Source of the DNA: an uncultured bacterium
GTDB lineage: Bacteria > Bacteroidota > Bacteroidia > Chitinophagales > CAIODY01
Assembly: GCA_903857255.1 (NCBI GenBank)
Contig: CAIODY010000086.1
Span: 7,312-71,311, forward strand
Direction of reading: 5' to 3'
Length of the DNA stretch: 64,000 bases
Position numbers and translations under genes: made by a program
Shown here: positions 2,866 to 6,223 of the stretch, piece by piece
Layout: each line of letters begins with the position of its first letter
Position numbering within the stretch: position 1 is the first letter of the stretch
Notes under the pieces: model-generated
Seen by the model: the letters and a program-made list of their open reading frames with translations, nothing else
Told to the model about the DNA's origin: nothing
The model's database searches: none

Positions 2866-4512
2866 GTGCCAAAAGATACATCCATAAAGTCAGTACTGAT
2901 CATAGGTTCAGGTCCAATTATTATTGGTCAGGCTTGTGAGTTTGATTACAGCGGTTCTCAGGCTGCCCGTTCGCTTCGAGAAGAAGGAATTGAAGTGGTG
3001 CTGATTAACAGCAATCCTGCAACGATTATGACCGACCCTATTGTTGCCGACAAAGTTTATTTGTTGCCATTGAATACGGAAAGCATTGAGCAGATTTTGA
3101 AAGAAAACAAAATTGATGCAGTGTTGCCAACCATGGGTGGACAAACAGCTTTGAATCTTTGCAAAGAAGCCGATGAAATTGGCTTATGGGAACAATACAA
3201 TGTAAAACTAATTGGCGTAGATATTAAAGCAATTGACAAAGCTGAAGACCGTGAAAAATTTCGCTTGTGGATGATTGAAATGGGTATTCCGGTTTGTCCT
3301 GCACATATTGCCAACTCATTTTTAGAAGGAAAAGAATTTGCACAACAAATAGGATTTCCGTTGGTACTTCGCCCATCGTTCACATTAGGTGGAACAGGCG
3401 GCGGCATAGTTTTCAAAAAAGAAGACTTGGATGAAGCCTTGAACCGAGCTTTGACAGCCAGCCCGATGCATGAAGTGCTGGTGGAAAAAGCGGTATTAGG
3501 TTGGAAAGAATATGAATTGGAATTGTTGAGAGACAACAACAACAACGTGGCAATCATTTGTACGGTTGAAAATTTCGACCCGATGGGTGTACACACGGGC
3601 GATAGCATTACTGTTGCGCCAGCTATGACTTTGAGCGATACAGCATTTCAGTTGATGCGTAATACTGCCATCAGCATGATGCGAAACTTAGGAAATTTTG
3701 CAGGCGGATGTAATGTGCAGTTTGCCATGAATCCTGAAACAGAAGAAATTATTGTGGTGGAAATAAATCCCAGAGTGAGCCGTTCATCAGCATTGGCAAG
3801 TAAAGCAACGGGTTATCCGATTGCTAAAATTGCTGCAAAACTGGCGATTGGATATAATCTGGATGAATTAAAAAATCAAATCACGAAAACAACTTCAGCA
3901 TTTTTTGAACCTGCATTAGATTATGTGATTGTGAAAATTCCACGTTGGAATTTCGATAAATTTAAAGGCGCAAATGATACACTTGGTTTCCAAATGAAAT
4001 CAGTTGGTGAAGTAATGGCAATTGGCAGAAGCTTCCCAGAAGCGATTCAGAAAGCTTGTCAGAGTTTGGAAAATGATGCGATTGGTTTGGGTTACTATGG
4101 TAAATCGTTGATGAAAAGTGAAGAGATTTTAGAAAGCATCAAAACACCGAAATGGGACAGAATATTCCGCATCAAAGATGCCTTGATGGCTGGGGCTACG
4201 GTTTCAACCATTCATAAATCAACCATGATTGATAAATGGTTTTTGTACCAGATTCAAAGCATTGTTGATTTGGAAAAACACTTAATGAAGTTTGATAAGC
4301 TTTCAGAAATTTCAAAAGAAGAAATGACGAAAGCCAAGCAAATGGGCTTTTCTGATTTACAAATTGCAAAATTTGTTGGCAACAAATGCACCGAAGATGA
4401 AGTGTATGAATATCGTAAATCATTAGGCATTACCCGAATTTTTAAAATTGTTGATACCTGTGCAGCAGAGTTTGAGAGTAAGACGAATTATTTTTATAGC
4501 ACGTTTGGGTAG
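2866..4512 (+). CDS. carB: carbamoyl-phosphate synthase large subunit, N-terminal half (carboxyphosphate ATP-grasp domain plus oligomerisation domain)
   Basis: 548 aa. The GTG start gives MPKDTSIKSVLIIGSGPIIIGQACEFDYSG, colinear with the CarB N-terminus. The ORF ends ...VDTCAAEFESKTNYFYSTFG-TAG, exactly at the linker before the second ATP-grasp half. Confidence 0.92.
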   Translation: MPKDTSIKSVLIIGSGPIIIGQACEFDYSGSQAARSLREEGIEVVLINSNPATIMTDPIVADKVYLLPLNTESIEQILKENKIDAVLPTMGGQTALNLCKEADEIGLWEQYNVKLIGVDIKAIDKAEDREKFRLWMIEMGIPVCPAHIANSFLEGKEFAQQIGFPLVLRPSFTLGGTGGGIVFKKEDLDEALNRALTASPMHEVLVEKAVLGWKEYELELLRDNNNNVAIICTVENFDPMGVHTGDSITVAPAMTLSDTAFQLMRNTAISMMRNLGNFAGGCNVQFAMNPETEEIIVVEINPRVSRSSALASKATGYPIAKIAAKLAIGYNLDELKNQITKTTSAFFEPALDYVIVKIPRWNFDKFKGANDTLGFQMKSVGEVMAIGRSFPEAIQKACQSLENDAIGLGYYGKSLMKSEEILESIKTPKWDRIFRIKDALMAGATVSTIHKSTMIDKWFLYQIQSIVDLEKHLMKFDKLSEISKEEMTKAKQMGFSDLQIAKFVGNKCTEDEVYEYRKSLGITRIFKIVDTCAAEFESKTNYFYSTFG

Positions 4513-4518
4513 ATACAA

Positions 4519-4577
4519 GCCCACAAAGACACAAAGAGCACAAAGTTTTTTCTTCGTAAACTTCGTGTCTTAGTGGA
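4519..4577. repeat. left flank hairpin of the GxxExxY cassette
   Basis: The 5' arm CCACAAAGACACAAAG(AGCACAAAG) pairs with the 3' arm CTTCGTGTCTTAGTGG at 14 of 16 positions. GCCCACAAAG (4519-4528) is the perfect inverted repeat of CTTTGTGGGC at 5020-5029. Confidence 0.8.
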
Positions 4578-4593
4578 ATAAAAAATAAAACCA

Positions 4594-4974
4594 ATGACAG
4601 AAAACGAAATTGCAAAAGAAGTGGTTGATTGTTGTTTCAAAGTTCATTCAACTTTAGGCGCAGGTTTGTTTGAAAGTGTTTATGAAGCGGCATTGGCTTT
4701 TGAATTTGATAAAAGAGGAATTGAATATACACGACAAGAACCTATTGAAGTTTATTATGAAGATGAGTTGTTGGATGTAGGTTTTAGAGCAGATTTTATT
4801 ATTGAAGATAAATTCATCATCGAATTAAAATCAGTTGAGACATTGGAGAAAGTTCATCACAAACAAATCTTGACTTATTTAAAGGTTACGGGAATGAAAT
4901 TAGGTCTGTTAGTGAACTTTAATGTTGATTTAATCAAAGATGGCATACACAGAAAAATAAACGGACAATTATAA
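4594..4974 (+). CDS. GxxExxY family protein (PD-(D/E)XK nuclease-like fold), inserted between the two carB halves
   Basis: 126 aa. Carries the signature G-LF-E-SV-Y (GAGLFESVYEAAL) and a D...E.K-like core (RADFIIEDKFIIELK), which I recognise as the GxxExxY family. Confidence 0.8.
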   Translation: MTENEIAKEVVDCCFKVHSTLGAGLFESVYEAALAFEFDKRGIEYTRQEPIEVYYEDELLDVGFRADFIIEDKFIIELKSVETLEKVHHKQILTYLKVTGMKLGLLVNFNVDLIKDGIHRKINGQL

Positions 4975-4978
4975 AATA

Positions 4979-5029
4979 TCCCACAAAGCCACAAAGAAAA
5001 AACTTCGTGAACTTAGTGCCTTTGTGGGC
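4979..5029. repeat. right flank hairpin of the GxxExxY cassette
   Basis: CCCACAAAGCCACAAAG (4980-4996) pairs with CTTAGTGCCTTTGTGGG (5012-5028) at 15 of 17 positions, with an extra CTTCGTG unit in the loop. It is a direct-repeat relative of the left flank. Confidence 0.8.
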
Positions 5030-6223
5030 GACAAAAAAATAATTATGTACAACGAATCAATCAGAAGCGACAAGAAAAAATACATCGTATTAGGCAGTGG
5101 TCCAAACCGCATTGGGCAAGGTATTGAGTTTGATTATTGCTGCACACATGGTTTGCAGGCCATTAAAGAATGTGGTCATGAAGCCATCATGATTAACTGC
5201 AATCCTGAAACAGTAAGTACCGATTTCGACATGGCGGATAAATTGTATTTCGAGCCTGTGTTCTGGGAGCATTTATGGGAAATTATTGAGCATGAAAAAC
5301 CTGAAGGTGTGATTGTTCAATTAGGCGGACAAACCGCTTTGAAACTGGCTAAACGCTTAACTGAAAAAGGAATTAAAATCATAGGTACTTCTTTCGATAG
5401 CATGGATATTGCCGAAGACCGTGGTCGATTCAGCGATTTGCTGAAAGAAATGAACATTCCTTATCCTGAATATGGCACAGCCCACACTGCTGATGAAGCA
5501 ATGGCTGTGGCAAATAAAATTGGTTACCCAGTGTTGGTTCGTCCGAGTTATGTATTGGGTGGGCAGCGTATGCGAATTGTGATAAATGATGATGAACTAG
5601 AAAATGGGGTGTTGAGCTTATTGAAACACTTACCTGATAATACCATTTTGATTGACCATTTCTTAGACCGTTGTCAGGAAGCTGAAATAGATGGCATTTG
5701 CGATGGAGAGAATTTTCATGTGATGGGGATTATGGAACATATTGAGCCAGCAGGCATTCATAGTGGCGATAGTAATGCTGTGTTACCTCCATTTAATTTA
5801 TCGCCTTTGGTGATTGTTGAAATGAAAGATTATGCCAAAAAAATTGCGATGAAATTGCAGATTAAAGGCTTGATAAATATTCAGTTTGCTATTAAAGATG
5901 GAAAAGTATTTGTGATTGAAGCCAATCCACGTGCCAGCCGTACAACGCCTTTCATTGCTAAAGCTTACCAGATTCCTTATTTGAATATTGCAACTAAAGT
6001 AATGTTGGGTGAAAAGAAAGTTACCGACTTTACTTACGAACCAAAATTGCAAGGTTATGCCATTAAAGAACCAGTTTTCTCATTCGATAAATTTCCTGGT
6101 GTGAATAAAGAATTAGGTCCTGAAATGAAATCAACGGGTGAAGCCATTCGCTTTATTAAAGACCTACGTGACCCTTATTTCCGTACGTTGTATAAAGAAA
6201 GAAGCATGCATTTGAGTAAGTAA
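5024..6223 (+). CDS. carB: carbamoyl-phosphate synthase large subunit, C-terminal half (carbamoyl-phosphate ATP-grasp domain); start is GTG 5024 or ATG 5045
   Basis: 399 aa. Contains KKYIVLGSGPNRIGQGIEFDYCCTHG and MKSTGEAIRF, colinear with the second CarB half. It is in a different frame from the N half, and no MGS-like allosteric domain follows. Confidence 0.9.
   Translation: MGDKKIIMYNESIRSDKKKYIVLGSGPNRIGQGIEFDYCCTHGLQAIKECGHEAIMINCNPETVSTDFDMADKLYFEPVFWEHLWEIIEHEKPEGVIVQLGGQTALKLAKRLTEKGIKIIGTSFDSMDIAEDRGRFSDLLKEMNIPYPEYGTAHTADEAMAVANKIGYPVLVRPSYVLGGQRMRIVINDDELENGVLSLLKHLPDNTILIDHFLDRCQEAEIDGICDGENFHVMGIMEHIEPAGIHSGDSNAVLPPFNLSPLVIVEMKDYAKKIAMKLQIKGLINIQFAIKDGKVFVIEANPRASRTTPFIAKAYQIPYLNIATKVMLGEKKVTDFTYEPKLQGYAIKEPVFSFDKFPGVNKELGPEMKSTGEAIRFIKDLRDPYFRTLYKERSMHLSK

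Follow-up and report, generated by a model that had tools for sequence, protein, structure and literature searches.

Positions 4519–5029 of a 64,000-nt stretch of DNA (hereinafter, the window) from an uncultured bacterium of the Bacteroidota order Chitinophagales (contig CAIODY010000086.1, positions 7,312–71,311, forward strand) contain a small nuclease gene enclosed by two hairpins and lying between the two halves of carB, the gene of the large subunit of carbamoyl phosphate synthetase (CPS). What are these hairpins for? An earlier note on this DNA, noticing that they are built of tandem CACAAAG heptamers, compared them with the RNase III-excised stems of 23S rRNA intervening sequences (IVSs) and with the ends of mobile DNA, and placed the start codon of the carB C half inside the right hairpin. 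Our comparison of homologous loci points elsewhere. Probably, 4519–5029 is one copy of a widespread GxxExxY cassette and a long-term resident of a split carB, and its foldbacks are most likely DNA arrays for the encoded nuclease. This reading is carried by the flanks of homologous genes in many phyla, by the association of heptamer type with protein clade, and by the mismatches between the arms.

A nuclease gene enclosed by two heptamer foldbacks

The open reading frame (ORF) list and profile searches define three consecutive ORFs: the carB N half, a 126-residue GxxExxY ORF, and the carB C half. The 535-nt spacer between the carB halves is the site of the cassette, which consists of the following parts.

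4519–4576, strand not assigned: left foldback (sequence, inverted-repeat search and folds)
4522–4528, 4530–4536 and 4539–4545: CACAAAG units of the left 5' arm
4546–4551: left loop, TTTTTT
4552–4558 (CTTCGTA), 4561–4567 (CTTCGTG) and 4569–4575 (CTTAGTG): units of the left 3' arm
4594–4974, plus strand: GxxExxY / PDDEXK_3 gene, 126 residues (PF13366, TIGR04256, AlphaFold2 model)
4980–5029, strand not assigned: right foldback (sequence, inverted-repeat search and folds)
4982–4988 and 4990–4996: CACAAAG units of the right 5' arm
4997–5002: right loop, AAAAAA
5003–5009 (CTTCGTG), 5012–5018 (CTTAGTG) and 5020–5026 (CTTTGTG): units of the right 3' arm
5030–5044, plus strand: A-rich leader CGACAAAAAAATAATT between the right foldback and the start of the C half

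The left foldback (4520–4576) reads CCCACAAAG-A-CACAAAG-AG-CACAAAG / TTTTTT / CTTCGTA-AA-CTTCGTG-T-CTTAGTGG, and the right foldback (4980–5028) reads CCCACAAAG-C-CACAAAG / AAAAAA / CTTCGTG-AA-CTTAGTG-C-CTTTGTGGG. The chance expectation for tandem CACAAAG doublets in the window is 0.05. The earlier note counted 14 of 16 pairs in the left hairpin and 15 of 17 in the right. The left foldback (4521–4545 / 4552–4576) is real, but the repeat finder gives 19 of 25 complementary positions (76%) for it; on the right, the count of 15/17 is reproduced exactly (4980–4996 / 5012–5028, 88%). The perfect 10-bp inverted repeat at the outer ends, GCCCACAAAG / CTTTGTGGGC, is also present, together with a long-range inverted repeat of 39 nt (4519–4557 / 4991–5029, 85%). 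The two flanks are direct repeats of each other, as had been proposed (4520–4537 versus 4980–4997, 94%; 4539–4588 versus 4990–5039, 70%). Because both flanks are palindromic and repeat each other directly, their outer ends are necessarily inverted repeats, which accounts for the "terminal inverted repeat".

The number of units differs between the genome that holds the window (G000) and a congener with the same cassette (G005). It also varies in the population, since precisely one 8-nt unit (4981–4988) is missing from a contig of a lake metagenome (run X5). An X5 contig that joins 4551 to 5003 with 32 other letters between, and with sides of only 25 nt, was considered as an empty-site joint and set aside, because it probably derives from another foldback. 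A 340-nt contig from a run labelled seawater metagenome (X4) is identical to 4553–4892, so the organism or a near relative apparently also occurs outside lake samples.

Heptamer type follows protein clade across phyla

Loci of 80 homologues (56–98% identity) were fetched and 79 were analysed, from Bacteroidota, Acidobacteriota, Cyanobacteriota, Verrucomicrobiota, Ignavibacteriota, Chloroflexota, Planctomycetota and other phyla. The flanks of these GxxExxY genes show the same kind of arms: in nearly all 79 loci, units of the form xCGCAAAG or xCACAAAG occur on one flank and their complements on the other. When the commonest flank 7-mer is found de novo, it is CACAAAG or CGCAAAG in most loci. At 45 of the 79, the flank-to-flank inverted repeat scores over 10 units higher than the best of 20 shuffles. 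The architecture is arm–gene–arm at 25 loci, foldback–gene–foldback, as here, at 21, and arm–gene–foldback, as in G005, at 11 (57/79 in total). The cassette in the window has the features of this class, namely inverted arrays of 2–4 tandem units with a period of 8–10 nt bracketing the gene.

On a maximum-likelihood tree of the 79 proteins, a supported clade (99/92) unites the proteins with CACAAAG flanks, which make up 10 of its 11 members. The unit label changes three times on this tree, against a mean of 11.5 for shuffled labels, and none of 500 shuffles is as low. Specifically in G000, four other GxxExxY genes each lie between their own, different inverted arrays (ACGCAAA-, CACATAG- and CACGGAT-type). 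One GxxExxY paralogue in this genome (C12:3409–3779), with ACGCAAA / TTTGCGT arms, is frameshifted (tblastn gives two pieces in different frames) and looks like a decaying copy.

The arms differ from one another in a way that bears on how they are read. The unit cores are 92% complementary between arms and the spacers 76%. The unit logo of the CACAAAG clade is C-A-C-n-A-A-G, in which position 4 is the loosest and the spacers are unconstrained, and the position-4 variants (A, T and G) in G000 and G005 lack compensating changes in register. If an RNA stem were under selection, wobble pairs should be favoured on the transcribed strand. Among the arm mismatches over the 79 loci, 41 are G·U-compatible in the sense strand and 46 in the antisense strand, while 149 are compatible in neither. 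Taken together, these features favour the view that the arrays are sequence-specific words read on DNA, rather than IVS-like stems for RNase III.

The nuclease is intact and long resident

The 126-residue protein matches PF13366 (E 3e-41) and TIGR04256 (E 1e-42). In an alignment of 40 homologues, G22, G24, E27 and Y30 of the GxxExxY motif are invariant, as are D67, E77 and K79 of the classical PD-(D/E)XK set; the PD-(D/E)XK catalytic core E27, D67, E77 and K79 is intact. An AlphaFold2 model has a pLDDT of 88.7, and among PDB structures its fold comes closest to Cas4 SSO0001 and the lambda and LHK exonucleases.

A comparison of G000 with G005 shows 33 differences in 375 nt of the gene (8.8%) and only 3 in 125 residues. 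The carB sequence flanking the cassette diverges by 7–9%, about as much as the nuclease gene. This pattern of substitution indicates that the gene is functional and under strong purifying selection, and that it is a long-standing resident and not a recent arrival.

A search for defence systems (PADLOC) gave no match for the protein, a PHROG search gave only weak, Cas4-like matches to phage genes, and a sequence search for solved structures found none. The one survey found to classify PF13366, that of the PD-(D/E)XK superfamily (PMC3424549), lists its function as "Unknown". In the literature, mentions of "GxxExxY" are scarce and passing, and neither a description of heptamer-array arms of PF13366/TIGR04256 genes nor the unit strings themselves were found.

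The cassette occupies a recurrent split in carB

On the two sides of the cassette, the carB features are as follows.

2866–4512, plus strand: carB N half, CPS.A-like, 548 residues, ending YSTFG-TAG (Pfam CPSase_L_D1, D2 and D3; NCBIfam NF003671 profile positions 1–541 of 1058)
4429–4506, plus strand: allele-specific 78-nt block left of the junction, which matches the split G004 and G005 alleles and diverges from the intact G001 and G006 alleles
5045–6223, plus strand: carB C half, CPS.B-like, 392 residues from ATG 5045, beginning MYNES, without the MGS/allosteric domain (NF003671 profile positions 544–925 of 1058)

The split is located at the CPS.A/CPS.B boundary (NF003671 profile positions 541 | 544), as in a split CPS. 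The C half ends at profile position 925 of 1058, and intact carB of related genomes is also only about 940–965 residues long. Since these intact genes are equally short, the lack of an MGS-like domain is, by this comparison, a trait of the order and not a truncation.

Among 11 genomes of the family (G000 and G001–G006 of one genus, G007, G009 and G010 of sister genera, and G008 of a third genus), carB is split in seven. The split alleles have common scars, STFG-stop (TAG, TGA or TAA) on one side and ATG-TAC-AAC-GAA on the other, and the junction is filled in different ways. Two genomes of other families are given last.

G001 and G006, same genus: carB intact, about 950 residues, ...YSTFDSANESIRSD...
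G007 and G009, sister genus: carB intact
G000 and G005, same genus: carB split, with this cassette
G003, same genus: carB split, with CACAAAG arrays, a UPF0175-like gene and another GxxExxY gene
G004, same genus: carB split, with a remnant CACAAAG arm, a UPF0175/PIN toxin–antitoxin pair and a 373-residue ORF
G002, same genus: carB split, with two alleles in one assembly, a CGCCAAG-type GxxExxY cassette and a PIN toxin–antitoxin module
G010, sister genus: carB split, with nucleotidyltransferase-like fragments
G008, third genus: carB split, with a UPF0175/PIN pair
G029 and G034, other families: carB halves on different contigs with unrelated flanks, probably unlinked

The carB junction seems to be a hot spot where small selfish genes accumulate. 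In G002, the GxxExxY cassette is on C161 (L032:3080–3700; 55% identity to the protein of the window) and the PIN toxin–antitoxin module on C326 (L033:1–640), both followed by ATG-TAC-AAC-GAA. In G003 (C145, reverse strand, 1–900), two copies of the left CACAAAG arm flank a gene for a UPF0175-like antitoxin. The carB halves are at C15:105312–106949 and C24:42511–43683 in G034 and on C206 and C15 in G029, with the ends YSSFEG-stop and YSTYEEKSITV-stop. In G031, a 57%-complete metagenome-assembled genome, carB has apparently lost about 75 nt at this place, with a frameshift.

The split at the CPS.A/CPS.B boundary thus recurs in this Bacteroidota order and is tolerated in at least three of its families. 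In Aquifex aeolicus, the CPS large subunit is likewise encoded by two ORFs, CPS.A and CPS.B, cut between the homologous synthetase halves, and the enzyme split at this boundary is active, according to PMC6022934, which cites Ahuja 2001. Unlike in Aquifex, the split here varies among members of one genus, and the junction holds selfish-looking cargo.

Outside the 78-nt block, carB of G000 is 95–100% identical to the intact alleles of G001 and G006. Within it, 21/78 and 22/78 positions differ from the intact alleles, compared with 3–5% elsewhere in carB (Fisher p ~1e-11), and only 4–5/78 differ from the split alleles of G004 and G005. Such a mosaic implies that the state of the junction was moved between lineages by homologous recombination, or that it is an old polymorphism with suppressed exchange beside the indel. 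An exchange may have run in either direction, with G000 gaining its junction or with G001 and G006 being repaired. Because the scars are the same whatever the cargo, and because carB is split without a cassette in other families, colonisation of an existing junction by the cassette is slightly more likely than a cut made in carB by the cassette itself.

The C half starts downstream of the right foldback

The start codon that had been placed inside the right hairpin, GTG 5024, is not borne out by the other split alleles. It is in frame here; in G005, which has the same cassette (98% amino-acid identity), the equivalent GTG in the last unit is 20 nt before the ATG and out of frame. The sequence ATG-TAC-AAC-GAA (ATG 5045 here) begins the C half in all seven split alleles of the family, including the hairpin-free alleles of G004, G008 and G010, and an A-rich leader of similar length precedes this ATG in each of them. 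ATG 5045 is located 16 nt beyond the foldback and 18 nt after the last unit. Since this start is conserved and the GTG of G005 is out of frame, the C half is taken to start at ATG 5045, behind its own A-rich leader, and GTG 5024 to be in frame by coincidence only. The related suggestion that translation of the C half depends on the hairpin finds no support in the same alleles, as those without a hairpin keep both the ATG and the leader.

Points that weigh against a nuclease–array cassette

Several observations weigh against the reading of the foldbacks as DNA arrays for the nuclease. The first concerns the specificity of the pairing. In G003, at the same carB junction, a GxxExxY gene from the CGCAAAG clade sits between CACAAAG arms, which breaks a strict rule of one protein and one unit. 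The G003 protein nests in the CGCAAAG clade on a long branch, and its N-terminal 40 residues are 78–80% identical to relatives in that clade and 60% identical to the protein of the window. It has the LEKVH loop (residues 83–88) in common with the CACAAAG clade, and E85 of this loop is present in 0 of 50 CGCAAAG-associated proteins. Possible origins are convergence of a candidate specificity loop, a gene-conversion tract and a chimeric gene.

The second concerns the arms, the spacers of which are still 76% complementary, as selection on a stem would also produce. In addition, folding of the hairpins is clearly stronger than that of shuffled sequences, and the predicted RNA fold is dominated by the long-range stem. 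A transcript search found the locus only in lake metagenome DNA contigs, with no RNA run containing this organism.

The third concerns movement. No target-site duplication is present at the borders and no second insertion site was found; the cassette is only at carB in G000 and G005, and this cassette type is single-copy in every genome examined. The nuclease gene has diverged as much as carB, which gives no sign of recent self-mobility. We infer the interaction between nuclease and arrays from sequence comparison, and with it the route of the cassette to new sites and its benefit or cost to the host.

Alternative explanations

The comparison with hairpin-ended mobile DNA made in the earlier note holds in part. 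Copies of the cassette occur across phyla, gene-less foldbacks exist, and congeners differ in carriage; there is no trace of transposition, a target-site duplication or a second copy. An autonomous mobile element of IS or MITE type was rejected for this locus on account of the missing target-site duplication, the single copy and the 8.8% divergence between G000 and G005. A bolder reading, which we regard as rather unlikely, is that GxxExxY cassettes are autonomous selfish elements with a heptamer code read by the nuclease. Their ends would be placed 10–25 nt upstream of start codons, so that junctions are occupied without polar damage and maybe even created, as in the carB split, and the carB junction would be an allele series. 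In that case, loop residues 83–88 (LEKVH with CAC units, LA-x-VH with CGC units) would set base 2 of the unit.

The closest published analogues are the Ssn/NTS and REP/RAYT systems, which are alike to the cassette and not the same family. In Ssn/NTS, a small stand-alone nuclease gene is likewise framed by hairpin repeats, repeat variants go with protein variants, and gene-less repeats are dispersed in the genome; the SRM motif occurs on both sides of 42% of ssnA homologues (PMC11893778). The cassette does not belong to that system. Its protein is a PD-(D/E)XK and not a GIY-YIG nuclease, its arms are 2–3 tandem heptamers in inverted order instead of one conserved SRM hairpin, the copies number about a dozen and not hundreds, and nuclease activity is only predicted here.

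By analogy with Ssn, the protein could nevertheless be a site-specific, possibly single-strand- or hairpin-specific endonuclease with a host function. The arrays would mark cut sites in incoming or replicating DNA and modulate transformation or recombination, and the copies around the gene itself would serve autoregulation and not mobility. The Ssn nuclease does cut the hairpin repeats that flank its gene (PMC11893778), and the gene here is under purifying selection and stably resident, with dispersed cognate arrays in the genome (see below) and a recombinationally mosaic carB junction. Besides the difference in superfamily and in array number (NTS copies run to hundreds per genome), several mutually different GxxExxY/array pairs coexist in one genome, and the host function is argued by analogy. 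We consider a function of this kind unlikely.

REP/RAYT systems (REPtron, REPIN) resemble the cassette in having a single-copy enzyme gene bracketed by inverted palindromic repeats that are also dispersed, gene-less, in intergenic regions. They differ in that RAYT is a Y1/HUH transposase and REPs are single imperfect palindromes, whereas the enzyme here is a 126-residue PD-(D/E)XK nuclease and the copy number far lower. Membership was rejected, since no Y1/HUH (IS200/IS605-like) transposase is present and the only family matches are PDDEXK_3 and GxxExxY.

Gene-less arrays lie close to start codons

A genome-wide search shows that the hairpins are not unique to the carB locus. Since a generic scan for foldbacks of any heptamer was too noisy in this AT-rich genome (374 matches versus 180 in the shuffled genome), a specific search for CAC-N-AAG doublets was used. 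It gave 21 doublets in G000, compared with 2 for the reversed control pattern, 4–24 in congeners, and 0–1 in two sister genera. About 11 CAC-N-AAG loci of G000 outside carB are gene-less, many of them half-decayed foldbacks, and 10 of 11 lie outside ORFs of at least 100 residues, one overlapping the start of an open frame.

At 7 of these 11 loci, the CTTnGTG arm ends at most 25 nt before the start codon of an ORF of at least 230 residues, compared with 16% of random intergenic-like positions, a rough control (binomial p 4e-4). Within 60 nt, the numbers are 9/11 and 28% (p 3e-4). The seven start-adjacent arrays (C6:15718, C7:8950, C47:564, C57:17466, C67:17601, C81:56353 and C115:102429) end 6–24 nt short of the ATG of a long ORF, and each has an A-rich tail (for example, GTGgttcaaaaaaataaacaATG). 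The same layout of array, A-rich leader and ATG is present at the carB C half.

The arrays could be primary, namely a REP/MITE-like repeat of the genus dispersed in 5' leaders and acting on neighbouring genes as a promoter, a 5'-UTR (untranslated region) element or a site for a host factor, with the GxxExxY gene as a passenger or maintaining enzyme. The gene-less arrays and their proximity to start codons argue for this, as does G006, which lacks this cassette and yet has 24 doublets. TTTG is the core of the Bacteroidota −33 and −7 promoter boxes, and the CTTTGTG unit contains it. No strict TAnnTTTG box is present in 4900–5044 (read by eye), however. In phyla that use other types of promoter, GxxExxY genes lie between similar arrays of quite different heptamers, unit type tracks protein clade, array-free split alleles keep the same start context, and G001, in which the protein of the cassette has no GxxExxY match at E ≤ 1e-20, has the fewest doublets among congeners (4). 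On balance, arrays acting on their own seem unlikely, about as much so as a host nuclease of Ssn type.

Two further gene-less foldback families, mostly about 60–170 nt long, are present in G000, one with ACCACATAG...CTATGTGGT ends and one with CACGGAT/CACAGAT units (C5:32400, C70:32759, C108:15965, C25:19500 and C120:3133; also C35:3106, C48:8619, C23:28764 and C23:32126). Matching arms flank two of the other GxxExxY genes in G000, at C43:73638–73982 and C113:16035–16349.

The foldbacks as RNA

Another unlikely alternative is the IVS-like element, in which the arms would pair in the polycistronic carB transcript and RNase III, a double-strand-specific RNase, would cut the stem and free the mRNAs of the N half, the cassette and the C half, making expression of the C half dependent on processing. 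Folding speaks for it. On the plus strand, the left and right hairpins have predicted RNA folding energies of −19.1 kcal/mol (z −4.3 versus shuffles) and −17.2 (z −3.8), and on the minus strand −28.9 (z −7.3) and −21.3 (z −4.0). They fold better on the minus strand because CACGAAG paired with CTTTGTG gives G·U pairs there. As single-stranded DNA, the hairpins have z-scores of −2.7 to −5.2. In the predicted fold of 4500–5060, the long-range stem (4519–4557 / 4991–5029) proposed to loop out the gene is indeed present in both the minimum-free-energy and the centroid structures. No intrinsic terminator is predicted in 4300–5200, where the hairpins are followed by A-runs and not T-runs; a terminator role was rejected on this ground, and read-through between the genes is plausible. 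The layout also resembles that of 23S rRNA IVSs (S23p / four-helix-bundle ORFs), in which a small ORF between complementary arms is inserted in an essential gene without destroying its function.

The comparative evidence does not support RNase III excision. G·U pairs show no strand bias and most mismatches are non-wobble, unit cores are better kept than spacers, position-4 variation is uncompensated in register, and hairpin-free split alleles retain the leader and ATG. An Rfam search gave chance-level matches only, so the foldbacks were not assigned to a known RNA family. The sole metatranscriptome match to the locus covers conserved carB only, at 85–99% identity, and is probably from a relative. 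One metatranscriptome contig of a cyanobacterial relative of the cassette extends unbroken from within the gene across the right foldback and into adjacent sequence. This is weak evidence against obligatory cleavage, as it is a contig and DNA carry-over is possible. An IVS of 23S rRNA type was rejected as a class because the host is carB, a protein gene and not an rRNA helix, the two halves keep separate stop and start codons and are not joined again, the ORF is of another family, and a G·U or covariation signature is absent, excision itself being judged from sequence only.

An intron, intein or homing-endonuclease insertion that restores carB can be dismissed, since the halves have their own stop and ATG, the 535-nt insert is not a multiple of three, and Rfam gives no intron. 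Integron cassettes (ORF plus attC) share a promoter-less unit of about 0.5 kb that ends in an imperfect hairpin; here, hairpins of tandem units are on both sides, and GTTRRRY / RYYYAAC core sites of attC are absent from the borders. No integrase gene was seen among the ORFs of the first 10 kb of the window, where no search aimed at integrases was made.

Proposed explanation and its meaning

In the reading that we prefer, a gene for a 126-residue PD-(D/E)XK nuclease would be enclosed by foldbacks of a clade-specific heptamer, here CAC-N-AAG with a period of 8–9 nt. The units would be conserved words, most likely binding or cutting sites on DNA for the encoded nuclease, and not a base-paired RNA stem under selection. 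The cassette would be vertically inherited and held by strong purifying selection, and swapped between congeners along with the junction by homologous recombination through carB. CarB itself would be made as two polypeptides, as in CPS.A/CPS.B of Aquifex.

Within one genus, the locus provides alleles of a single essential-gene junction that are empty, filled, or filled with other cargo. It also adds a junction state that appears to move by homologous recombination while the gene stays under purifying selection, and gene-less arrays located a short distance ahead of start codons. The PF13366/TIGR04256 proteins form a large family that crosses phyla. If the arrays are the recognition sites of its nucleases, this family would join REP/RAYT and Ssn/NTS as a third nuclease-plus-cognate-repeat system, and it might yield small, programmable, sequence-specific nucleases.

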